Shown: one piece after another, positions 13,366 through 31,700 of the stretch
Numbering within the stretch: the first letter of the stretch is position 1
Layout: each line of letters starts with the position of its first letter
Assembly: GCA_024655965.1 (NCBI GenBank)
Contig: JANLFL010000006.1
Coordinates: 879 to 64,878, forward strand
Source: Caldisericota bacterium
GTDB taxonomy: Bacteria; Caldisericota; JANLFM01
DNA: 64,000 nt
Reading direction: 5' to 3'
Made by a program: the position numbers and the translations under genes
Notes under the pieces: generated by a model
What the model saw: the letters and a program-made list of their open reading frames with translations, nothing else
What the model was told of the DNA's origin: nothing
Database searches by the model: none

Positions 13366-13719
13366 ATGAGACACCTAAAAGACCATAGAAAACTATCAAA
13401 AAGCTCGGGCCCAAGAAGGGCTTTGCTGCGAAATCTTGCCACCAGTTTCTTTTTGAAATCCCGCATCGAAACCACCGAAGAGAAGGCAAAGGAAGCTCAA
13501 AGGGTAGTTGAGGAGCTTATTACCAAAGCAAAGAGTAAAGACCTTTCCACCCAGAGGGAGGTTTTCGCCTTCCTCCTTTCCAAAGAGGCAGGACAACGCC
13601 TTTACTCCACAATTCTTCCCAAAGTCGGAGAGCGTCCTGGGGGGTACACCCGAATCGTAAAAACTGGAAAGAGGAGAGGCGACGGGGCATCCTTGGCTAT
13701 CCTGGAGTTAGTGGAGTAA
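13366..13719 (+). CDS. rplQ: 50S ribosomal protein L17
   Basis: MRHLKDHRKLSKSSGPRRALLRNL...GGYTRIVKTGKRRGDGA. Confidence 0.95.
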   Translation: MRHLKDHRKLSKSSGPRRALLRNLATSFFLKSRIETTEEKAKEAQRVVEELITKAKSKDLSTQREVFAFLLSKEAGQRLYSTILPKVGERPGGYTRIVKTGKRRGDGASLAILELVE

Positions 13720-13720
13720 A

Positions 13721-14566
13721 ATTCCCCCCCTCATTACCCTGAAAGGGGTAAGCTACAGCTACAGGACGGAAAAAGGATCCCCCGTCAATGCGCTTTCTTC
13801 AATCGATCTGGAAATCGAGGCGGGGGATTTTCTATGTATTCTGGGGGCGAATGGGTCGGGGAAATCCACCCTGGCAAAACTCCTTAACGCCCTTATTGTC
13901 CCTTCCAAGGGCCAGGTTCTGGTAGATGGCATTGATACCCGGGATCCCCTTCGGACCTGGGAGATCCGCCAAAAGGTTGGACTGGTCTTCCAGAATCCCG
14001 ACAATCAGATTGTGGGGACGGTGGTGGAGGAGGATATTGCTTTCGGATTGGAAAATCTGGGATTTCCCCCCGCGGAAATTAGAAAAAGGGTGGACTGGGC
14101 ATTGAGTAAAGTGGGCATGCTTTCTTACCGGGAGCACCCTCCACACATGCTTTCCGGGGGTCAGAAACAGCGCGTGGCAATAGCCGGGATTCTGGCAATG
14201 AAGCCTACCTGCATCGTCCTCGACGAGCCAACCAGCCTTCTCGATCCCCGGGGAAGGTCCGAGGTGCGGGAGATTTTACAGGAGCTTAATCGGGAAGGAA
14301 TCACCATTGTCTTGATCACCCATTTAATTGAGGAAGCCATTCTCTCCAAAAAAGTTCTGGTTTTGGACCAGGGGAGGATTGCGTTGGCAGGAACCCCGGA
14401 GGATGTTTTGAGCAAAAGCCAGGAGCTTAAGACCTTTCATCTCGAACCGCCTTTGACTGTGAGGCTGGTCCAGGCCCTCCGGGGGAATGGGATCCATTTT
14501 TCAAAACAGGTGATGCCTCTCGAGGAACTAAAGAAAGCCCTATGCGAATTGAGGCAAAAGACCTAA
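13721..14566 (+). CDS. ecfA1: Energy-coupling-factor transporter ATPase EcfA1. The start is uncertain and no canonical start codon is available.
   Basis: The frame is open from the TAG at 13709-13711. It reads IPPLITLKGVSYSY...ILGANGSGKSTL (Walker A)...LSGGQKQRVAIAG...IVLDEPTS. The ORF track starts only at M14012, which is downstream of Walker A. A start at the ATT at 13721, 4 nt after GGAG, gives a typical 281 aa. Confidence 0.8.
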   Translation: MPPLITLKGVSYSYRTEKGSPVNALSSIDLEIEAGDFLCILGANGSGKSTLAKLLNALIVPSKGQVLVDGIDTRDPLRTWEIRQKVGLVFQNPDNQIVGTVVEEDIAFGLENLGFPPAEIRKRVDWALSKVGMLSYREHPPHMLSGGQKQRVAIAGILAMKPTCIVLDEPTSLLDPRGRSEVREILQELNREGITIVLITHLIEEAILSKKVLVLDQGRIALAGTPEDVLSKSQELKTFHLEPPLTVRLVQALRGNGIHFSKQVMPLEELKKALCELRQKT

Positions 14567-15403: not shown

Positions 15404-16210
15404 ATGGTCACCCTGGGCCAATACGTTCCCGGGACATCTTTCCTCCATCGAATGGACCCCAGGGTTAAATCGCTTCTTGCCGTATTTTTCCTGACCGTCC
15501 TTTTTTTCATCAACAAGATTTCAGGGTATATTTTCTTCCTTTTCTTCCTGTTCCTTCTCGTAGAGCTCTGCGGGATCTCCTTGAAATACCTTTTTAAAGG
15601 TTTAAGGCCAATTTTGATTTTGATTCTATTTACCCTTGTCGCCCAGGGACTATTCAGCGGTGAGGGAAGGATCCTCTTCTCCTGGGGAATAATCACCGTT
15701 TCGGATGTGGGTTTATGGAAAGCAATTTTCATGAGCATGCGCCTTGCGATGCTCGTTTTTGTCACTACCCTGTTAACACTCGTAACTTCACCCATCGATC
15801 TGACAGATGGCATGGACAGGATGCTCTCCTTCCTCACCCATTTGCGAATTCCCATTCATGAGGTCTCCATGATGATGACCATCGCCTTACGCTTCATTCC
15901 CACCCTGCTCGATGAAACTGATAAAATAATTAAAGCCCAAATTTCCCGGGGAGCACCCTTGGACCGGGGCAATATCTTTAAACGCCTGAGGGCTTTAATT
16001 TCCGTTTTCATCCCCTTGTTCGTTTCAGCCTTCAGGAGGGCGGATGAGTTAGCAATGGCCATGGAATCAAGGTGCTATAGAGGAGGGAAGGGAAGGACTC
16101 GCATGAAAGAGATGCGGGTTTCCCCGCTGGATTTATGGGGGTCCCTGGTTGCCATCCTCGCGGGTTTTCTTTCCATCCTTTTGAACTTTCTGCCTTACTG
16201 GTTCTTATGA
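15404..16210 (+). CDS. ecfT: Energy-coupling-factor transporter transmembrane subunit EcfT
   Basis: Polytopic, with the conserved RFIPTLLDE...I..AQ.SRG motif. The ATG at 15404 is preferred. The GTG at 15389 is an alternative start. Confidence 0.9.
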   Translation: MVTLGQYVPGTSFLHRMDPRVKSLLAVFFLTVLFFINKISGYIFFLFFLFLLVELCGISLKYLFKGLRPILILILFTLVAQGLFSGEGRILFSWGIITVSDVGLWKAIFMSMRLAMLVFVTTLLTLVTSPIDLTDGMDRMLSFLTHLRIPIHEVSMMMTIALRFIPTLLDETDKIIKAQISRGAPLDRGNIFKRLRALISVFIPLFVSAFRRADELAMAMESRCYRGGKGRTRMKEMRVSPLDLWGSLVAILAGFLSILLNFLPYWFL

Positions 16211-16941
16211 GGAACATCCTTTTAGATCTCTCTTACCTGGGGACATATTTTTTTGGTTTCCAGAAGCAAAAGAATGCCTTAACCGTTCAGGGCTTATTGG
16301 AAAAAACCTTGGAGGACATCACTGGTGAGAAAGTGAAAGTGGTGGGATCTGGGAGGACGGATCGTGGTGTTCACGCCCTCTCGCAAATTTGCAACTTCCA
16401 TACCAATTCTCGCTTGACCCCCCAAGAATTTGAAAAAGCTTTGAATTCCCTGCTTCCCCCCCAAATTCGCGTGAACCACGCTCTTGAGGTTGATGAAAAT
16501 TTTCACTCCCGGATATGCGCAAAGGGGAAAATTTACTGCTACTTTGTCTGGACGGACCGGATTCTCCCTCCTTTCCTTTTGAATTTTGCTTTCCATTTCC
16601 CCTTTTCCTTGGATTCTGAGAGGATGAGGGCCTCCCTTAATGAAATAAAGGGGAAACACGATTTCAGCTCCTTCGCCAAAGCAGGAAGCTTCAAGGGAAA
16701 CCCCCTGAGGGAAATAAAAAGAGCGGAACTGGTTGAGGACCCACCCCTATTATGCTTCCTCTTCGAGGGGTCAGGATTCCTTCAGCACATGGTGAGGGCG
16801 ATAGTGGGAACAATCCTCGAGGTGGGAAGAGGGAAGTCAAACCGGGGGGAGATTTTGGAGATATTAAAAAGAAAAGACCGCCGCTTGGCAGGCCCCACGG
16901 TTCCCCCTGAGGGCTTATTCCTGGTGAAAGTCCTGTATTGA
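16207..16941 (+). CDS. truA: tRNA pseudouridine(38-40) synthase TruA
   Basis: MRNILLDLSYLGTYFFGFQKQ...GSGRTDRGVHAL (catalytic Asp motif). ATGA overlap with ecfT. The ORF-track start at 16135 lies inside ecfT. Confidence 0.92.
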   Translation: MRNILLDLSYLGTYFFGFQKQKNALTVQGLLEKTLEDITGEKVKVVGSGRTDRGVHALSQICNFHTNSRLTPQEFEKALNSLLPPQIRVNHALEVDENFHSRICAKGKIYCYFVWTDRILPPFLLNFAFHFPFSLDSERMRASLNEIKGKHDFSSFAKAGSFKGNPLREIKRAELVEDPPLLCFLFEGSGFLQHMVRAIVGTILEVGRGKSNRGEILEILKRKDRRLAGPTVPPEGLFLVKVLY

Positions 16942-16974: not shown

Positions 16975-19212
16975 ATGTCTGAGACCTCCCAGAATCAAAA
17001 CAGGAAAAATTTCCTTTTAGTCCGGACCGAAAGGCTCGGGGTAGGGGAAATCTGGGCCCTTCCTATCTCCCAGGTGGGAGGGGAAAGCAAGGAACCTCGG
17101 GAAAGTCCCCTTCCTTTAATTGAATACCAGGAGGAGAAATTCAAGGGGGGAATTCGATTAACCCCGGACGAGGTCATCAGGAAAGGAAGCGCAAGATTAA
17201 AAGGGCTTCTGGAAGAAGATGACTTCCCCACTATCGATTTTCCGGTGGGGGATGGGGAAGAATTACCTGCTTTATTTTTTGAATTCCTCGTGCACTGGGG
17301 TTTCCCCGGAGGGGTAGTTGGCGGTTACGAGGTTCTCCCCAAAGCTGCATCCTTCCTGGAACAGTTTTTAAGGGCAAACCCCGGCTGCCAGGTGATGGTC
17401 ACGGGGCCCAAGAGATCCCTGGCAATCCTCGGAGATTTTTTAAAAAAAAGCGAGGGAGTTTTTCTTCTCTCGCCCAATGAAGTGGAGGAGTGGAAAGGGA
17501 GCTATTCGTTGAGCTTCCTCCTTATCCTTGATGCCGAACAAGGGGTGAATTATGCTACCCCCTACTTTTTTTCCTTACTAAAAATCCCAAGGAGGATCTC
17601 CTTTGCTCAATTCAATTCCAAGGGGTTTTTGCGGACTTCAAAAAAGGAAGCTTTATCGAAGATTTTTGGGGTTTCTTACTATTCCGTCATCTGGGATTTT
17701 TGCATTCTCGACCGGAACTCTTCCTTCTTTTTTCAGCCAAGAAGTTATTCCTTCCTCGAGAGACAACCGATCTCCTTGACCTTCGCCGAGTTCACCTTGA
17801 AGGATGGCTCGACTTTGGAAGTGACTATCCCTCCTAAGGCTCAGGTTCCTCAGGTGGTTTCCCTTCCTCCCGGAAAGTCCTTTTTGGAGGAAGGCGAGGC
17901 TCTGGCTTCCAGGGAGGGGGAAAAGGCCGAGTTCGTTCCTTTCCGCAAGTACTTCCCCACCTATTCAGACCTGAGCGATTCTCAATTGAGGTGGTACCTT
18001 TTTTGGAGGACACAGGCAAGAAAGGGGGAATACCTCGAAACCGATCTTTCCTACCTTTTCCTTTTTTCCTATGAGCTGATCAACTGCATCGGGCAGGAAA
18101 GTCCCTTCCAGGGTTACCAGAAGCTCAAGGAATTGTGGAGGAACTACCGGGAGGATTTTCCTCGATTGGACAATTATTTGATCGACTGGATTGTGGATTT
18201 CTCCATCGTTTATTCCTGCCCCGTGAACCCTCTTGAGACCTATAAGGAAGCCTTGAATTTTGGGGTGGTGAAGAATCCCGACCTCCTGATTGAGGAATTT
18301 TTGAGGGATGGAGCGGAGGAGATCCCCCTGGTCCTCCTTGAGGAATTATCCTTTTACAAGTTTTTAAAGAGCCCCTTCTTCAAAAAATTCCCAGAACCGG
18401 AAGTCGCAGAAAGGTTCAGAAGGGCCTTTTGGAGAATTGATGATTTTTTTAAGGAGTCCACAAATTCGGGGATTTTCGAAAAGTTCCGTCCTCCCTCAAA
18501 AATAAAGGTTAGGAGATTCCCTTTTCAGGGAGCCCTTTGGGGAAAGGAGAAGCTGGAGATGATCACCCTTGGGGAAGCTCATCCTTATTCCCGTTTCTCC
18601 CCTCTGGCTAATTTTTTTACCTCGATTTTTAAAGAAATTGAAAACTGCTTGAGGGAAAAATACCGGTTTCCCGGAAGATTGGGGGACTCGGGGCTTCCTC
18701 CGGACATCAGGAGATTTATCAGGGAAGCGATTTTTGAGGAAATCCCCCGACCTCACCAACCCCGGAGAGTTGATGAAGAAGTGGTAAGGAGGCTCCTTAA
18801 GGAATCGGAGGAAGTTCGGGAGTTGATTCAGCGATTCTCGTCCTCCAGGGATTATGAGGTTACCCAATCTTCAGGGGAGGAACTCCCAAATTCCTTTCCT
18901 GAGGCTGAAGAGGCTCCTTTTCCTGGGGTTTCCAGCGAATGGCGGCTCTTTGCTGGAAGGCTCAAGCCTTTTCAAAGGGAGGTTCTTCGGGCTTTATTGA
19001 AAGAGGATGACCCTATTCCTCTGATCGTAAGAATTTCGCGGGAAAATGGAATTATGCCCGAGGCCCTTTTGGATTCCTTAAACGAGATTTCCCTGGAGGC
19101 AGTTGGCGACCTCATCCTGGATGGCAATTCCACCCCGCCGGTGATCTTCGAGGAGAACAGGGATATAATTAAACAAATTCTTTCGATCTTTGGCGAGGAT
19201 GAACGCTCTTAA
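16975..19212 (+). CDS. sngA: TerB-N/TerB-C domain protein (Shango SngA-like) with an uncharacterised N-terminal region of about 320 aa
   Basis: aa 320-370 read FVPFRKYFPTYSDLSDSQLRWYLFWRTQARKGEYLETDLSYLFLFSYELIN, which matches my recollection of the TerB_N signature. The C-terminus reads RRLLKESEEVRELI...MPEALLDSLNEISLEAVGDLILD, which is TerB_C-like. It is the first gene of a coupled triad. The domain call is from memory of the family motifs, not from a search. Confidence 0.75.
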   Translation: MSETSQNQNRKNFLLVRTERLGVGEIWALPISQVGGESKEPRESPLPLIEYQEEKFKGGIRLTPDEVIRKGSARLKGLLEEDDFPTIDFPVGDGEELPALFFEFLVHWGFPGGVVGGYEVLPKAASFLEQFLRANPGCQVMVTGPKRSLAILGDFLKKSEGVFLLSPNEVEEWKGSYSLSFLLILDAEQGVNYATPYFFSLLKIPRRISFAQFNSKGFLRTSKKEALSKIFGVSYYSVIWDFCILDRNSSFFFQPRSYSFLERQPISLTFAEFTLKDGSTLEVTIPPKAQVPQVVSLPPGKSFLEEGEALASREGEKAEFVPFRKYFPTYSDLSDSQLRWYLFWRTQARKGEYLETDLSYLFLFSYELINCIGQESPFQGYQKLKELWRNYREDFPRLDNYLIDWIVDFSIVYSCPVNPLETYKEALNFGVVKNPDLLIEEFLRDGAEEIPLVLLEELSFYKFLKSPFFKKFPEPEVAERFRRAFWRIDDFFKESTNSGIFEKFRPPSKIKVRRFPFQGALWGKEKLEMITLGEAHPYSRFSPLANFFTSIFKEIENCLREKYRFPGRLGDSGLPPDIRRFIREAIFEEIPRPHQPRRVDEEVVRRLLKESEEVRELIQRFSSSRDYEVTQSSGEELPNSFPEAEEAPFPGVSSEWRLFAGRLKPFQREVLRALLKEDDPIPLIVRISRENGIMPEALLDSLNEISLEAVGDLILDGNSTPPVIFEENRDIIKQILSIFGEDERS

Positions 19213-20521
19213 GATTCCCAGGAGAATATCCACGGCAATTCTAAATTCCCTCAACTCGGGAGTGGTCCCCCGGATTGGGCTGGAATATTTCGCTGTGGGT
19301 AGGAAGAAGGAAACGGAAGCCCTTCTCTCTGACCTGGAAAGTGTTGGCCAGGGGGGTTCAATATTTCGAATGATCGTGGGGAGATACGGTTCCGGGAAAA
19401 GTTTCCTGCTGAATCTCCTTCGAAACCTGGCCCTTGACCAGGGCTTTGTAGTCATGGATTGTGACCTTTCTCTGGAGCGCCGTCTTTCCGGGTCCAATAG
19501 GGAAGGCCTGAACACCTACCGGGAACTGGTTAAGAACCTTTCCTTGAAAACCAGGCCGGAAGGTGGTGGCCTCCCGGTTATTCTGGAGAGGTGGATTTCC
19601 AGTCTTCAAACCGAAGTGCTTAAAAGGACCGGCCTTTCCCCCCAGGATCCCCGATTTTCCCTTGAATTGGAAAGGGAAGTTTTCCAGACCGTGGGGGAAC
19701 TGGAAGACCTGGTGCACGGTTTCGACTTTGCCACCGTGGTCAATTCCTACTGGAAAGGCTACCTGGCGGGGGATGAAGAATTAAAGACCAACAGCCTGAG
19801 GTGGCTCCGTGGGGAGTATGATTACCGGGTCCAAGCCCGGGAGGCCCTGGGGGTGAGAGTGATCATCGACGAGGATAGCTGGTACGATTATTTGAAACTC
19901 TTCAGCCAGTTCGTTGTCAGGATCGGTTATAAGGGTTTGCTCGTCCTTTTTGATGAGGTGGGAAACCTGTACAAGATCAGTCATTATATCTCAAGGCAGA
20001 ACAATTACGAGAAATTGCTTTTCATTTTCAATGACACAACCCAAGGGAAAGCCTCCAATTTCGGAGTTTTCATGGCTGGAACCCCCCAGTTTCTGGAGGA
20101 CACCCGGAGAGGGCTTTTCAGCTATGAAGCCCTTCGTTCCCGGTTAAGCCCATCGAGGGTTTTGGATTCCGAACTTTTAACTTCTTCTGGACCGGTGATC
20201 AGGCTTCAAGTCCTATCATTTGAGGAAATCTTCGTCCTTCTGGGGAAGGTTCAGGAAATCTACTCCTCCCATTATTCTGTTCCTCCAATTCTTTCAAGCT
20301 CCGAAATCCAGGCTTTCCTGAACGAGATCTCCCGAAGGCTTGGCTCAAGGGATTTCCTCACTCCCCGGGAGGTCACCCGGGATTTCCTTTCCTTGCTGGA
20401 TACTTTAAGACTCAAGCCTGAGGTTAAATTTGAACAGATCATCACCTCCCCGGATTTTCAGCCTTCGAGAGAGGAGGGACAGAGGAAGCCGGGGGACGAC
20501 CTGGAGGACATCCTGTTATGA
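19199..20521 (+). CDS. sngB: DUF2791/BrxC-D-like P-loop ATPase (Shango SngB-like)
   Basis: Walker A is GRYGSGKS (nt 19378-19401). Walker B is LLVLFDEVGNL. The N-terminus RISTAILNSLNSGVVPRIGLEYFAVGRKKE is typical of the family. The start is the ATG at 19199 or the TTG at 19190, so the gene overlaps the upstream gene by 14-23 nt. Confidence 0.75.
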   Translation: MNALKIPRRISTAILNSLNSGVVPRIGLEYFAVGRKKETEALLSDLESVGQGGSIFRMIVGRYGSGKSFLLNLLRNLALDQGFVVMDCDLSLERRLSGSNREGLNTYRELVKNLSLKTRPEGGGLPVILERWISSLQTEVLKRTGLSPQDPRFSLELEREVFQTVGELEDLVHGFDFATVVNSYWKGYLAGDEELKTNSLRWLRGEYDYRVQAREALGVRVIIDEDSWYDYLKLFSQFVVRIGYKGLLVLFDEVGNLYKISHYISRQNNYEKLLFIFNDTTQGKASNFGVFMAGTPQFLEDTRRGLFSYEALRSRLSPSRVLDSELLTSSGPVIRLQVLSFEEIFVLLGKVQEIYSSHYSVPPILSSSEIQAFLNEISRRLGSRDFLTPREVTRDFLSLLDTLRLKPEVKFEQIITSPDFQPSREEGQRKPGDDLEDILL

Positions 20522-22710
20522 ACGAGAACCCATTTTTTAAGCTGGCCCCTTTTATTCAGGAGTTTATTTTTGCTCACGGATGGACGGAACTCCGGGCAGT
20601 CCAGGTGGAGGCATGCAGGGTAATCTTTGACACCGATGCCCATCTTCTCCTGGCCACTGGGACCGCTTCCGGGAAGACCGAAGCAGCTTTTCTTCCTATC
20701 CTGACCCTCCTTCACCAGGACCCCCCTCAATCTGTGGGAGTCCTCTACCTCGGGCCAACCAAAGCGCTGATAAACGATCAATTTCAAAGGTTAAATGAAC
20801 TTTTGAAAGAAGCAGAAATACCGGTTTTCCACTGGCACGGTGATGTCCCCCTCTCCGAAAAAATGAGGGTTTTAACTGAGCCCAAAGGAGTCCTTCAGAT
20901 TACCCCCGAATCGATGGAAGCCCTTTTAATGCATCGCAAGACCGATCTCATGAAAATCTTCGGGGATTTGAGGTTTGTGGTAATTGATGAGGTGCACGTG
21001 TTCATGAACTCGGATAGGGGAAGGCAGATTCTCGCTCAACTTGGGCGCCTTAAACCTTATTTAAGGAAGGAACCGAGAAGGGTCGGGCTTTCTGCTACCT
21101 TGGGGGATTATTCGGAGGTTGAAGAATGGCTGCGCCAGGGTACTTCCCGACCGGTGATCACACCGAAAGTGGGAACAGGAGAGCAGAAGATCCGCTTGGC
21201 ACTGGAGCACTTCTTTCTCCTTAAAGGGACGGATGGCAAGGGCTCCGTGAAGGAGGACAAGGTGATCAACCCCTATTATGAATTCATCTTTGATCACTCC
21301 CTTAACCGGAAATGCCTGATTTTTTCCAACTCAAAGGAGGAAGCGGAATCCATGCTTTCCTCCCTGCGAATGGTCGCTAAAACCAAAAAGTCCCCCGATT
21401 TCTATTACATGCATCACGGTTCGATTTCTGCTCCTTTGAGGGAGGACGCTGAGGACACCCTTAAAGATCCCACCATTCCCGCGATCGTTGCCGCAACAAC
21501 CACCTTGGAGTTGGGGATCGATGTCGGTCCCCTGGAGAGGATTATTCAGCTCGAAGCACCCTATTCCGTTTCAAGCTTCTTGCAGAGGCTGGGAAGGTCC
21601 GGAAGGAGGGGCAATCCCCAGGAAATGGTCATGGTCTTCCGGGAGGAAGAACCGATCGGCGATGAGCTCCTTCCTCAGCAATTTCCTTGGAGCTTCCTTC
21701 AAGGGATCGCCCTGATTCAACTTTATTTGGAGGAAAGGTGGATCGAACCTTTGCGCCCTGTCCGTTTCCCTTTCAGCCTTCTTTACCATCAGACGATGGC
21801 CATCCTCGCCTCCCAGGGGGAGCTCAGGTTTTCCGAGCTTGCAGACAGAGTCCTTCAACTTCCACCCTTCCTTCAAGTTCCAGTGGAGGACTTGAAGGAG
21901 CTTGTTGGACATCTCCTGGCGATCGATCACCTTGAGAGGACGGAGGAAGGTGGCTTAATTGTAGGTTTGAAGGGGGAGGAGATTGTAAGAAGTTTTCGCT
22001 TTTATGCCGTCTTCCAGGATGAGGACGAGTACACGGTGAAAGACGGTTCAAGGGAGATCGGAAGCGTTGCCTTCCCCCCTCCTCCTGGAGAAAGGTTCGG
22101 GCTTGCAGGCCGCACCTGGGAAGTCTTAGAAGTCGATCCCCGGCACAAGGTCATCCTGGTTAGGGGGGTTGAAGGGAAAGCCCTCACCACCTGGCCTGGA
22201 CCTTCAGGAGTGATTCACACGAGAATCAAACAGCGGATGAAGCAAGCGCTCCTTGAGGATGTTGACTATCCTTACTTGCAGCCCAACGCCCGGCAAAGAC
22301 TTAAAGAAGCCAGGAACCTTGCTCGAATGGTTGGCCTGGAAAAAAATCACATCCTCCCACTCGGGGGGCGAACCTTTGCCCTTTTTCCCTGGCTCGGCAC
22401 CCGGTCTTTCAGGGTGATGTCCCGGGTTTTGAAACGCCTTTTGGCTTCGGAATTCAAAATCACCAACGTTGAAGGAGAGCCCTCGAATTACCTTATTTTC
22501 AAGATGGAGAAAGGGGATCAGGAGGAATTGAATCGGAGGCTTGTTTCCCTTGCCAGGGAGGGTATTTCCCCTGAGTCCCTTCTGGGGACAAATGAAGCCC
22601 CGATAATGCAGAAATTTGACCCATTTCTCCCCCCGAAGCTTCTTCGAAAAGCCTTCGCCTATGACCACCTTGATGTGGAAGAATTTTGCCAGATTGTGGG
22701 AAATTGGTAG
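20518..22710 (+). CDS. sngC: SF2 DEAD/DEAH-box helicase, Lhr-like (Shango SngC-like)
   Basis: Motif I is ATGTASGKT (20653-20679). Motif II is DEVH (20986-20997). Motif III is SAT. Motif VI is QRLGRSGRR. The C-terminal ~330 aa resembles the Lhr winged-helix and beta-barrel region (GERFGLAGRTWEVLEVD). ATGA overlap with the ATPase gene. Confidence 0.85.
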   Translation: MNENPFFKLAPFIQEFIFAHGWTELRAVQVEACRVIFDTDAHLLLATGTASGKTEAAFLPILTLLHQDPPQSVGVLYLGPTKALINDQFQRLNELLKEAEIPVFHWHGDVPLSEKMRVLTEPKGVLQITPESMEALLMHRKTDLMKIFGDLRFVVIDEVHVFMNSDRGRQILAQLGRLKPYLRKEPRRVGLSATLGDYSEVEEWLRQGTSRPVITPKVGTGEQKIRLALEHFFLLKGTDGKGSVKEDKVINPYYEFIFDHSLNRKCLIFSNSKEEAESMLSSLRMVAKTKKSPDFYYMHHGSISAPLREDAEDTLKDPTIPAIVAATTTLELGIDVGPLERIIQLEAPYSVSSFLQRLGRSGRRGNPQEMVMVFREEEPIGDELLPQQFPWSFLQGIALIQLYLEERWIEPLRPVRFPFSLLYHQTMAILASQGELRFSELADRVLQLPPFLQVPVEDLKELVGHLLAIDHLERTEEGGLIVGLKGEEIVRSFRFYAVFQDEDEYTVKDGSREIGSVAFPPPPGERFGLAGRTWEVLEVDPRHKVILVRGVEGKALTTWPGPSGVIHTRIKQRMKQALLEDVDYPYLQPNARQRLKEARNLARMVGLEKNHILPLGGRTFALFPWLGTRSFRVMSRVLKRLLASEFKITNVEGEPSNYLIFKMEKGDQEELNRRLVSLAREGISPESLLGTNEAPIMQKFDPFLPPKLLRKAFAYDHLDVEEFCQIVGNW

Positions 22711-22773: not shown

Positions 22774-22803
22774 TTTGACAGGAATTTGGCCCGGAGTTTA
22801 TAA
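22774..22803 (+). promoter_or_regulatory. Sigma-70-type promoter for rplU-rpmA
   Basis: Perfect TTGACA (22774-22779), an 18-nt spacer and perfect TATAAT (22798-22803), about 27 nt upstream of the rplU ATG. GGAAAGGAAGG serves as the RBS. Confidence 0.65.
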
Positions 22804-22830
22804 TTACCCTAATCAGGAAAGGAAGGTAAT

Positions 22831-29705: not shown

Positions 29706-30426
29706 ACCTGTGTACGTTTCCTTTTCCCGGATCTCGGCATATTTAAGCTGTCCTTACCGGTATTTCCTCCAGTACGTCCAGGGGTTTAAACCGCCTGCGA
29801 ACCATCTGATGAGCTTTGGAACTTCACTTCATGCTGCCCTGCGGGACTTTTATTCCCAGGGAAAGATCCCTCCCACCCTGGACGATTTATTTTTTCACTA
29901 CTTCCGGAATTGGTCCTCATTCGGCTTCCGGAGCAGGGAGCTCGAAACCCGGTTCTTCCAGGAAGGCCTTTCCATCCTTGAGGAATACTACGATAGGAAT
30001 ATCGGAGACTTCTCTCCCGCTCTTTTCGTGGAGCGTAAGTTCAGGGCGGAAATTAAGGGGATTCCCTTTTTAGGAATTGCTGACCGGATTGACAGGCTCC
30101 GGGACGGTTCCCTTAGGGTCCTTGATTATAAAACTTACCACCGGAACGAAGTTAATGAACTTCAACTCCTTCTTTATCGCCTGGCCCTGGAAGAGGTCTT
30201 CGGGTATCCCCCTCAAGAGCTGGTTTTTTATTTCCTCAAGGAACAGGAGACCTTAAAAGTGGAAGCAAGCCAAGAAGCTCTGGAAGAGGCTGAGGAAGCT
30301 TTAATCAGGGTGAGCGAAGGGATCTCAAGAGGAATTTTCACCAAAACCAGGGGTCAAAGCTGTCTGAACTGCGATTTCCAAAGGTTCTGCGAGCTTGAGG
30401 ATCTGGATTTCCAGGAGGAATTTTAA
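29692..30426 (+). CDS. Cas4/RecB-like PD-(D/E)XK nuclease with a four-Cys Fe-S cluster motif
   Basis: An N-terminal Cys (YLSCPYRY), motif II GIADRID, motif III VLDYKT, QLLLY (QxxxY), and C-terminal CLNCDFQRFC. The start is the TTG at 29692 or the GTG at 29710. Confidence 0.75.
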   Translation: MWGIEPVYVSFSRISAYLSCPYRYFLQYVQGFKPPANHLMSFGTSLHAALRDFYSQGKIPPTLDDLFFHYFRNWSSFGFRSRELETRFFQEGLSILEEYYDRNIGDFSPALFVERKFRAEIKGIPFLGIADRIDRLRDGSLRVLDYKTYHRNEVNELQLLLYRLALEEVFGYPPQELVFYFLKEQETLKVEASQEALEEAEEALIRVSEGISRGIFTKTRGQSCLNCDFQRFCELEDLDFQEEF

Positions 30427-31700
30427 TCCCTGTGATGGAGCAGGGGAGCGGCGATGAAACTCAACCCCTTTTCGGTTAGGGCTTTTGCCGTAAGATTGAT
30501 GGACTCGTGTTTGTCCAAAAAGTTGCGCAGAAGTAAAGGCATTTCCCCCTTTTCCTCAATTTCCGATTTAAACCTGAAATAATCAAGAATATCCGAAGGG
30601 TGCTCCCTTTGCTTTTCAACCTCGATTTCTCCGCCTTCGTGCTTAGCTGAGATGTTGGCTACATGATCTGCCAGTTCAACCAGTTCTTCCCGGCGATTGT
30701 AGGGCTGAATCACGATGCTCTTCCAGGTTTCCGTGATGTGATGTTCAAAGCGGACTACCTTTTCGAACCCCAGTGCTTCCCGGAACTGTGCGGAAACCTC
30801 CATCGTCCGGTTATTCACTGAGTTCGACCAGTTGAATCCCACGAGGGGTGAAGTCCCGTCGTCGCGAGAAAAGAGCTTCGCGGCCAAGAGCGTCCAGAGG
30901 GCAGCGTAGGGGTTATCGTTCCCCATAAAAACGGAGATCTTGAATTCGATGTCGATTCCCAGTTTGAAGAGGAAATAGCCTAAAATGACGGTTCCGGGAT
31001 TGATGTTTAAAACCTGCTTGATCCCGTAATTTGTATAGTAATAAAGGAGCTCTTCCACCCACTTGAGGGGGTGGTCGTTTGGTTGTCCTACTCCTCCGAA
31101 GTAGCCGGTGATCGTTTCCGGTCCTCCCAAGTGGATATTTGAGCCGTCAGTTCCCTTCGTGTCCAGTGTCTCCACGTAACTTGAGCCCATGATTTGCATG
31201 GCGGAACCAAAGGCCAAGAGATCCCCCTGATCTGCCTCGGATTCCTTCATCTTCCTCACCCTGATGAACCTCCCGGGCATCAACTCCCTTTTTTCCAGGG
31301 CTTGCTGGGCCTCAGCGATGATCCAGGGAAAATACTGAGCAGCGCTAATTTCCAGGGTGACCGCATAATCTTCTTTAAATTTAAATTTGGGGTAATCCTG
31401 TCCCAGGACTTTCTCCCGGAACTGGCGAACCGTGATGAACCTTCCCCTGTCCCTCTGCTCCTTCAGCCACAGGACATCTTTGAGGTATGGGGAGCCCATC
31501 TCTTTTAAACGGGAGATTTGATTCTCCAGTTTCCTCGCCTCCGCTGCTTTGCGGTTGATCTCCTCGGGGTTTCCAAATTTTTCAATCACGTCGAGGAACT
31601 CCTCGATCACGATCATATCCGGGCGGGATAAAACCTCATTGATGGCTTCAAGGCGTTCAGGAGGGATTCGGAGCCTGCCTCTCATTTCATTTCTGTCCAT
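30423..31700 (-). CDS. Hypothetical protein, 425 aa, family not recognised
   Basis: A long ORF with coding-like composition and no competing ORF. Its N-terminus is helical and charged. The central region reads GGPETITGYFGGVGQPNDHP...FKISVFMGNDNPYAALW. I found no diagnostic motif. Confidence 0.6.
   Translation of the reverse strand: MDRNEMRGRLRIPPERLEAINEVLSRPDMIVIEEFLDVIEKFGNPEEINRKAAEARKLENQISRLKEMGSPYLKDVLWLKEQRDRGRFITVRQFREKVLGQDYPKFKFKEDYAVTLEISAAQYFPWIIAEAQQALEKRELMPGRFIRVRKMKESEADQGDLLAFGSAMQIMGSSYVETLDTKGTDGSNIHLGGPETITGYFGGVGQPNDHPLKWVEELLYYYTNYGIKQVLNINPGTVILGYFLFKLGIDIEFKISVFMGNDNPYAALWTLLAAKLFSRDDGTSPLVGFNWSNSVNNRTMEVSAQFREALGFEKVVRFEHHITETWKSIVIQPYNRREELVELADHVANISAKHEGGEIEVEKQREHPSDILDYFRFKSEIEEKGEMPLLLRNFLDKHESINLTAKALTEKGLSFIAAPLLHHRD

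Follow-up and report, generated by a model that had tools for sequence, protein, structure and literature searches.

We analyzed a 64,000-nucleotide stretch of DNA from a Caldisericota bacterium (contig JANLFL010000006.1, positions 879 to 64,878 of the forward strand; hereafter the window, numbered from its first letter) and found that the three-gene cassette at 16975-22710 is a complete, intact Shango system (SngABC) of variant architecture, whose first protein, SngA, is predicted to begin with a single inactivated SNF2-like lobe. The cassette was in all likelihood acquired once in a discrete Caldisericota clade and has since been inherited vertically in the interval between truA and rplU. 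The system itself is of a known kind and would be labelled Shango automatically; what is new here is the variant SngA, with its pseudo-SNF2 lobe, together with fixation in the core genome.

The name Shango and the validation of its anti-phage effect come from work in Escherichia coli and Pseudomonas aeruginosa PA14 (Millman et al., 2022; Johnson et al., 2023), where the protection is modest (~10-100-fold in P. aeruginosa and ~10-fold in E. coli). The literature offers no published mechanism, the sole idea being a speculative "membrane surveillance" by the TerB-containing systems Shango and Bunzi, and the open mechanism is a trait of the whole Shango family, not of this locus. A preliminary description of the window, made from its letters without database searches, had named the cassette Shango, with reference to phage-defence screens, and had called its mechanism unexplained; database matches and literature agree with it on these points. 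The three genes are as follows.

16975..19212, plus strand: sngA, 745 residues (open reading frame call)
19199..20521, plus strand: sngB from ATG, 440 residues, with an alternative TTG start at 19190 giving 443 residues (open reading frame call)
20518..22710, plus strand: sngC, 730 residues (open reading frame call)

The genes are contiguous and co-directional in the order sngA-sngB-sngC, which is identical among 12 related loci, and the open reading frame calls and junctions match the three overlapping frames first described. The stop codon of sngA is TAA (19210-19212); an in-frame start of sngB at TTG (19190) or at ATG (19199) makes the two genes overlap by 23 or 14 nucleotides, a range likewise read in the preliminary description and directly visible in the letters. 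The ATG and its 14-nucleotide overlap are favoured as the probable start, since the match to the PADLOC SngB model sets in at residue 4 of the TTG form and gene calls in relatives give 440 residues. The 14-nucleotide overlap is kept in most close loci (4 nucleotides in locus L006 and 23 in L005), and sngB and sngC share ATGA at 20518-20521, again as originally reported. No locus contains an internal stop, the Walker A and B motifs of SngB and helicase motifs I, II, III and VI of SngC are kept in nine loci, and the guanine-cytosine (GC) content and skew across 16975-22710 are those of the flanks.

Profile searches place all three proteins in the family. In Pfam, SngA matches TerB_N (PF13208, 4.9e-30, residues 301-459) and TerB_C (PF15615, 8.7e-8, residues 603-731), both above the gathering scores (33 bits against a cutoff of 26.3 for TerB_C) and both as predicted from the letters alone; SngB matches BrxC_BrxD/DUF2791 (PF10923, 3.1e-151), and SngC matches DEAD (2e-27) and Helicase_C (4e-17). 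The best PADLOC matches are SngA (3.4e-74, covering residues 292-736 only, against model positions 72-527 of 528), SngB (4.2e-172, 571 bits, aligned over its full length) and SngC (3.6e-238, 791 bits, residues 1-727 against model positions 1-717 of 720). Hidden Markov model E-values of 1e-30 to 1e-238 exclude chance, and the triad is almost certainly genuine Shango. No NCBIfam equivalog scored above its cutoff for the three proteins, and identical proteins are held at NCBI under generic names from a "Caldiserica bacterium" metagenome-assembled genome (MAG).

The gene order and domains, a TerB_N/TerB_C protein followed by a DUF2791 ATPase and a DEAD/DEAH Lhr-like helicase, are those of the reference Shango of E. 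coli and P. aeruginosa PA14. The reference differs in that its SngA model, of 528 positions, is without the N-terminal pseudo-SNF2 lobe of the window SngA, and in that it occupies variable defence islands, hotspots and plasmids, whereas the triad in the window has become a fixture between core operons throughout a deep clade. Outside this clade the family is mobile: 690 plasmids, of which 540 are conjugative, carry full-length SngC-like helicases, and a Paenibacillus megaplasmid carries a canonical triad with a 573-residue SngA.

The variant architecture resides in SngA, for which an AlphaFold2 (AF2) model was built from a 64-sequence alignment (mean predicted local distance difference test score, pLDDT, 85.4).

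16975..19212, plus strand: SngA as a whole, with an N-terminal pseudo-SNF2 lobe, TerB_N, a helical/beta middle region and TerB_C
17002..17769, plus strand: predicted pseudo-SNF2 lobe, residues ~10-265 (AF2, Foldseek and motif alignment)
17875..18351, plus strand: TerB_N, residues 301-459, all-helical (Pfam and AF2 secondary structure)
18781..19167, plus strand: TerB_C, residues 603-731 (Pfam)

The N-terminal ~290 residues lie outside both TerB_N and the Shango SngA model, and the preliminary description missed the domain that they contain. In the AF2 model residues ~10-265 form an alpha/beta domain with pLDDT mostly >90, followed by a disordered linker at residues 267-296. When this domain was compared with the PDB by Foldseek, the top matches were all lobes of SWI2/SNF2 ATPases (Chd1, ISWI, INO80, SRCAP, CSB, SsoRad54 and ZorD of Zorya), typically over 180-200 aligned columns at a root-mean-square deviation of 3-6 Å, and the PDB and viral-library matches to SNF2 lobes agree with one another and run to dozens. 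Independently of the PDB, its matches in the viral structure library BFVD were SNF2/SF2 helicases. Moreover, the family of N-domains keeps the SNF2 order of motifs, namely 'WGxPGGIVG', 'ILVVGxKKxLD' (Ia-like), 'LLEADxLIKSxxSKLF' (II-like) and 'LTLGLFSG' (III-like), the third of which compares with SNF2 motif II, 'DEAHRIKNxxSK'. The likeness to SWI2/SNF2 ATPases thus lies in a one-lobe predicted fold and in motif order; the differences lie in catalysis and completeness. None of the 30+ aligned family members has the Walker A GKT, and each has a degenerate DExH, the window SngA having 'VLPKA' in place of GxGKT and 'LILDAEQ' (DAEQ) in place of DExH. Only one RecA-like lobe is present, where an SNF2 protein has two lobes and a Pfam SNF2-rel_dom match. 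On these grounds the lobe does not belong to the SNF2 family and should be incapable of canonical ATP hydrolysis; we regard residues ~10-265 as a predicted single, inactivated SNF2-like lobe at the level of fold and motifs.

Sequence searches for an SNF2 relationship gave no match with Pfam at E<=10 on SngA residues 1-300, with Pfam on 24 long-form SngA proteins, with a long-form profile against PDB sequences, or with PADLOC on isolated N-modules. In a phmmer search of 1.84 billion representative proteins the N-module was found in 41 clusters only, nearly all of them "long-form" SngA proteins of ~1050-1250 residues that carry it at residues ~370-620, the region to which residues 60-300 of the window SngA align. 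The long-form loci, which include those of Desulfitobacterium hafniense, Desulfosporosinus hippei and L007, resemble the window in having the N-module followed by genes for SngB and SngC; they differ in an additional stretch of ~300-370 uncharacterised residues at the N-terminus and, in many cases, in a second TerB_C, and L007 differs in lying among defence-like genes (Cap4 nuclease, SbcCD-like and AddAB-like). In these proteins (P0010, P0019, P0020 and others; L007 10001-13684) the first ~300-370 residues have no Pfam, PDB or PADLOC match, and TerB_C is often duplicated. In P0025, P0036 and P0037, which are other SngA homologues, the N-terminus is of the FHA, ankyrin or UVR kind. Given these varied N-termini, the SngA N-terminus appears to be a swappable module. 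The pseudo-SNF2 lobe is not mentioned in the Shango literature that we searched.

Within the clade, the N-domain is about as well conserved as TerB_N (identity 0.56 versus 0.61), which marks it as a real domain. Of 11 columns that are invariant across 64 SngA homologues, nine fall within TerB_N, where the invariant polar residues are R345, E367, N370 and D408.

The second and third proteins carry the motifs of two distinct nucleic-acid-type NTPases.

19379-19405, plus strand: SngB Walker A, GRYGSGKS, kept in nine loci (as GRYGSGKSF)
19937-19963, plus strand: SngB Walker B, LLVLFDEV, with the hydrophobic-DE pattern (hhhhDE) kept in nine loci
20518..21657, plus strand: SngC helicase core, residues 1-380, superfamily 2 (SF2) RecA1 and RecA2 (PADLOC, Pfam and PDB sequence matches)
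20653-20688, plus strand: SngC motif I, ATGTASGKT, invariant in nine loci
20977-21003, plus strand: SngC motif II, DEVH, invariant in nine loci
21577-21612, plus strand: SngC motif VI, QRLGRSGRR, invariant in nine loci, as is motif III (SAT)
21658..22710, plus strand: SngC C-terminal half, residues 381-730, predicted winged helix and Lhr-type domain-4-like region (AF2 and Foldseek)

By its profile match and conserved motifs, SngB is a BrxD-type P-loop ATPase (DUF2791), and SngC is an SF2 helicase of the Lhr/BrxHI type; both assignments bear out what had been proposed from the motifs. The best PDB sequence relatives of SngC are mycobacterial Lhr (5v9x, 7lhl) and Bacillus subtilis MrfA (YprA; 6znp), at 1.6e-29 to 2.6e-26. 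Its highly conserved C-terminal half, for which an Lhr-like character had also been suggested, was modelled separately (residues 361-730, pLDDT 86.3), and the best Foldseek match was Mycobacterium smegmatis Lhr (5v9x, 5.2e-4, probability 1.0, TMq 0.46) at 13% identity, followed by MrfA and then by winged-helix regulators; a WH_Lhr match was weak (9.4e-4) and below the Pfam cutoff. The RecA1-RecA2-WH-domain 4 architecture of the Lhr family is therefore found in SngC, in the core by sequence and in residues 361-730 by fold, and SngC is Lhr-like throughout, in its C-terminal half according to the predicted fold. Lhr-core and MrfA are its best solved relatives both for the motor (by sequence) and for the C-terminal half (by fold), but SngC is not their orthologue, as its scores against the Lhr equivalogs (TIGR04121, 198 bits versus 850; PRK13767, 162 versus 849; PRK09751, 104 versus 1496) fall far short, and it stands in an operon with SngA and SngB. 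SngC, BrxHI, DruE and DpdJ form one clade of defence helicases. No nuclease fold was found in the protein parts searched, in line with the original observation that no nuclease domain is visible, and no hydrophobic segment of transmembrane grade occurs in SngA, SngB or SngC, from which we infer that the three proteins are probably soluble.

To place the cassette in its genomic setting we considered its flanks and the equivalent loci of related genomes. Two features bound it.

16207..16941, plus strand: truA, last gene of rpoA-rplQ-ecfA-ecfA'-ecfT-truA, 33 nucleotides before sngA
22775..22804, plus strand: promoter of rplU-rpmA-obg, TTGACA-18 nucleotides-TATAAT, a 12/12 match beginning 65 nucleotides past the sngC stop and forming the downstream boundary of the cassette

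Downstream of sngC follow rplU-rpmA-obg-nadD-rsfS-polA-fpg-coaE, and the flanks hold no defence gene, integrase or tRNA and show no GC deviation. The typical, though not defining, setting of Shango, an island, hotspot or mobile element with patchy distribution, is not found here. Five contigs with SngA relatives (66, 56, 52, 51 and 46% identity) have identical synteny, as does L008, the one recovered GTDB Caldisericota representative. Altogether, the triad occupies the truA-rplU interval in all ~12 sampled lineages of the clade, namely the window, L001, L002/3/8/37, L004/43, L005/39, L006 and a set of deeper loci (L032, L033, L034, L040, L044 and L045) whose SngC proteins are 59-69% identical. 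Among the latter, L032, L034, L044 and L045 encode long-form SngA (1048-1215 residues), while in L033 and L040 sngA lies off the contig, and all that L040 shows of sngC is its 3' end. Whatever is visible of the triad in L032, L033, L034 and L040 lies upstream of rplU; the contigs of L044 and L045 end before rplU, with the L044 triad directly after truA and the L045 flanking genes the same as those of L032.

The cargo beside the triad varies among the deeper lineages and includes GntR with alanine racemase, ROK with Ppx and PPK, an ABC-F protein with a PIF1-WYL helicase, and a PemK toxin. Two of these genes, a PIF1-family helicase fused to WYL (L033, 8906-10498, minus strand) and the PemK-type toxin (L044, 10057-10368, minus strand), are possibly related to defence or to toxin-antitoxin systems. 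In L005 (7998-9975) and L039 a GNAT acetyltransferase, an alpha/beta hydrolase and a 91-residue open reading frame stand between truA and sngA, and therefore the truA/sngA junction can accept cargo while the linkage of sngC to rplU holds. The arrangement resembles the P. aeruginosa hotspots cDHS1 and cDHS2, each a variable interval between conserved core genes that can hold Shango. There, however, the defence content turns over between strains; at truA-rplU Shango is the one constant occupant, even at distances where synonymous sites are saturated, and the genes that vary are metabolic ones, not defence genes.

A metagenome scan anchored on ribosomal protein L21 revealed no empty site: on every contig that has a Caldiserica-type L21 (>=76%) and extends upstream, sngC lies upstream of rplU. 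In an L21 protein search, identity was >=75% inside the clade and <=54% outside it with no relatives between, a gap that marks the clade as discrete. A scan of Obg-anchored contigs with query-specific peptides, which is not a presence/absence survey, returned one more Caldisericota genome (L008) and unrelated phyla. In a tree the SngC proteins of the clade are monophyletic, and the nearest outgroup SngC, from Candidatus Jettenia, stands in an unrelated context. One member of the syntenic clade, P0117 (SngC, 67% identity), is labelled "Coprothermobacterota bacterium" at NCBI, which means either that the clade extends to organisms so labelled or that the MAG taxonomy conflicts with the Caldiserica/Caldisericota labels of the window and L008.

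Pairwise distances among Sng proteins track those among housekeeping proteins (r = 0.97-0.98). Synonymous sites are saturated between most lineages, and we discarded ratios of nonsynonymous to synonymous divergence (dN/dS) from pairs of the window with its relatives for that reason, using close pairs with dS of 0.04-0.06 instead, in which the triad and its neighbours have equal dS. The dN/dS of SngB (0.053-0.055) and SngC (0.027-0.051) compares with 0.043-0.072 for PolA and 0.039-0.112 for Obg, so that purifying selection on SngB and SngC is as strong as on these two housekeeping proteins. SngA (0.09-0.21; 0.12-0.21 in the pairs with dS of 0.04-0.06) evolves 2-3 times faster than its partners. 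Taken together, the triad is likely an ancient, vertically inherited fixture of this lineage and not a mobile island, within the limits of the sampling.

The only perfect sigma-70-type promoter match within 13.5-24 kb is that of rplU, whose -35, -10 and Shine-Dalgarno elements do not vary among six loci (window, L001, L002, L004, L005 and L006), the promoter elements beginning ~15-65 nucleotides past the sngC stop. In L004 and L006 the spacing leaves no room for a terminator between sngC and the rplU promoter. The 33-nucleotide spacer between truA and sngA contains no promoter-like or terminator-like site, and its sequence is not conserved among loci. With no promoter or terminator signal to itself, the triad is probably read constitutively from the upstream rpoA-rplQ-ecf-truA operon, of which it would form the tail. 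The rplU Shine-Dalgarno (GGAAAGGAAGGTAA, window 22775-22830 region) is unusually long and is invariant despite saturated synonymous sites; the region upstream of rplU gave no match to the Rfam L21 leader.

What the cassette does in this lineage can be approached from the family and from the locus. We lean towards a continuing role in defence, on the grounds that SngA is the faster-evolving component and that the phenotype of the Shango family has been validated. As a tentative mechanism, which we hold to be less probable than the defensive role itself, the triad would be a nuclease-free, ATP-driven machine for nucleic-acid surveillance. In this scheme SngA would sense and scaffold without catalysis: its dead SNF2 lobe would bind duplex DNA or dock a partner ATPase, and the invariant polar cluster of TerB_N (R345, E367, N370, D408) would offer a putative ligand or partner site. 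SngB might act as an NTP-dependent switch or loader, and SngC would be the motor and, in effect, the effector, translocating 3' to 5' on single-stranded DNA in the manner of Lhr and unwinding DNA or RNA:DNA intermediates of invading replicons. Immunity could then arise from dismantled replication or recombination intermediates, or from their exposure to host nucleases, with no nuclease in the system itself. A dead SNF2-like lobe in a subgroup of SngA proteins, together with the absence of a membrane segment, would suggest that the "TerB" component engages DNA and would speak against membrane surveillance, and it makes the SngA N-domain a specific target for deletion and mutation.

Several points weigh against this reading. 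The genomic setting is not that of a typical defence system, and selection is as on housekeeping genes, which fits a domesticated role equally well. The SNF2-like assignment comes from a predicted structure and short motif resemblance, with Pfam, PADLOC and PDB profiles blank, and the steps of the mechanism are drawn by extension from what Lhr does biochemically and from domain logic. Similarly, co-transcription with the upstream operon is read solely from absent consensus signals, and fixation was sampled within the clade, with outgroup Caldisericota such as Caldisericum lying outside the sample. The conservation of SngC is weak evidence either way because SngC evolves slowly across phyla, and we did not accept it as a sign of domestication, since cross-phylum homologues are already 54-60% identical.

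The strongest competitor, which we consider rather unlikely, is that Shango has been domesticated here as a core genome-maintenance machine acting, for example, on R-loops, on intermediates of stalled forks and replication-transcription conflicts, or in DNA repair, no longer primarily anti-phage and expressed with the translation and transcription gene block. Its appeal lies in the core-gene behavior of the locus, the lack of defence neighbors and the kinship of SngC with DNA-repair helicases. Across the sampled lineages the triad stays in its interval as the cargo around it changes, its divergence follows that of housekeeping genes, and the dN/dS of SngB and SngC is indistinguishable from that of PolA and Obg on short and long time scales. 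Likewise, the surroundings hold neither defence nor mobile genes, no promoter or terminator belonging to the triad alone was detected, the closest solved relatives of SngC (Lhr and MrfA) are DNA-repair helicases, and the short-form clade has lost the ~300-370-residue N-terminal region of long-form SngA. On the other hand, the Shango family is anti-phage by experiment and plasmid-borne elsewhere, SngA as the presumed sensor changes 2-3 times faster than its partners, as is often the case with immune sensors, SngC is slow-evolving in every phylum, and constant phage pressure could retain a defence system over the long term.

The preliminary description had set against its own reading the case of a triad universally fixed at this locus with signatures of an essential housekeeping role. 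Fixation in the sampled clade and PolA/Obg-like dN/dS were indeed found. They fall short of proof of a housekeeping role, but they take away the backing that genomic context usually lends to a mobile defence island. A more specific form of domestication, somewhat less probable again, would have the triad wired into the ribosomal-protein/RNA-polymerase gene block as a constitutive genome-maintenance complex, with the dead SNF2 lobe as a DNA-engaging sensor; were it true, Shango would in essence be a machine for surveying DNA structure, with a natural "always-on" version in this lineage. Whichever role applies, a defence-family cassette that behaves as a core gene provides a natural test case for the fixation and domestication of immune modules, and clade-wide fixation, if it holds in complete genomes, would urge caution in scoring "defence systems" defined by hidden Markov models in uncultured phyla as accessory immunity.

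The TerB names raise a further alternative, a Ter-type module for membrane or metal (tellurite) stress or for "membrane surveillance", with the TerB-like protein at the membrane. The domain names TerB_N and TerB_C and the literature speculation about Shango and Bunzi speak for it, but SngA has only these two domains at E<=0.01 and no TerB proper (PF05099), no TerC, TerD, TerA or TelA gene lies in the flanks of the window or the syntenic loci, none of the three proteins has a transmembrane-grade segment, and SngA carries a helicase-like lobe in the same chain and is coupled to two NTPases of nucleic-acid type. We consider such a module very improbable and rejected it for its missing TerB proper, Ter partners and transmembrane segment.

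BREX types 2 and 6 reportedly carry a BrxD-BrxHI pair, homologous to the ATPase and Lhr-like helicase genes of the window. That the cassette is a BREX remnant, such a pair without PglX, PglZ or BrxC and with an unrelated TerB-like gene upstream, is scarcely credible and was rejected: SngB does match BrxD (PADLOC 5.3e-49, 166 bits; NCBIfam BREX_BrxD 1e-49) and SngC matches BrxHI over its full length (2.8e-123, 411 bits), but the Sng models score far higher (571 versus 166 bits and 791 versus 411 bits), the NCBIfam BrxD score of 170 bits compares with a 350-bit cutoff, PglX, PglZ and BrxC were not found within 10 kb in the window or the syntenic loci, and sngA, a TerB_N/TerB_C gene, is translationally coupled to sngB by the 14-nucleotide overlap kept in most close loci.

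Elsewhere in the window, Rfam and tRNA scans of all 64 kb (1-64000) returned no tRNA gene and no Rfam family at the gathering threshold, despite the S10/spc/alpha ribosomal-protein region inside it. A 425-residue open reading frame at 30423-31700 (minus strand) runs antisense to its neighbours and has no Pfam match at 1e-5. One gene of the operon upstream of the cassette has an unusual beginning.

13709-14566: first ecfA, with no ATG, GTG or TTG 5' of its Walker A

Its frame opens directly after the rplQ stop codon (TAA, 13717-13719), where the starts available are ATT (13721, 13733) and CTG (13739). The mechanically called open reading frame (GTG 14012, 184 residues) is without the P-loop, and relatives are called inconsistently at 214-254 residues; the first ecfA is likely to use a non-canonical start codon.

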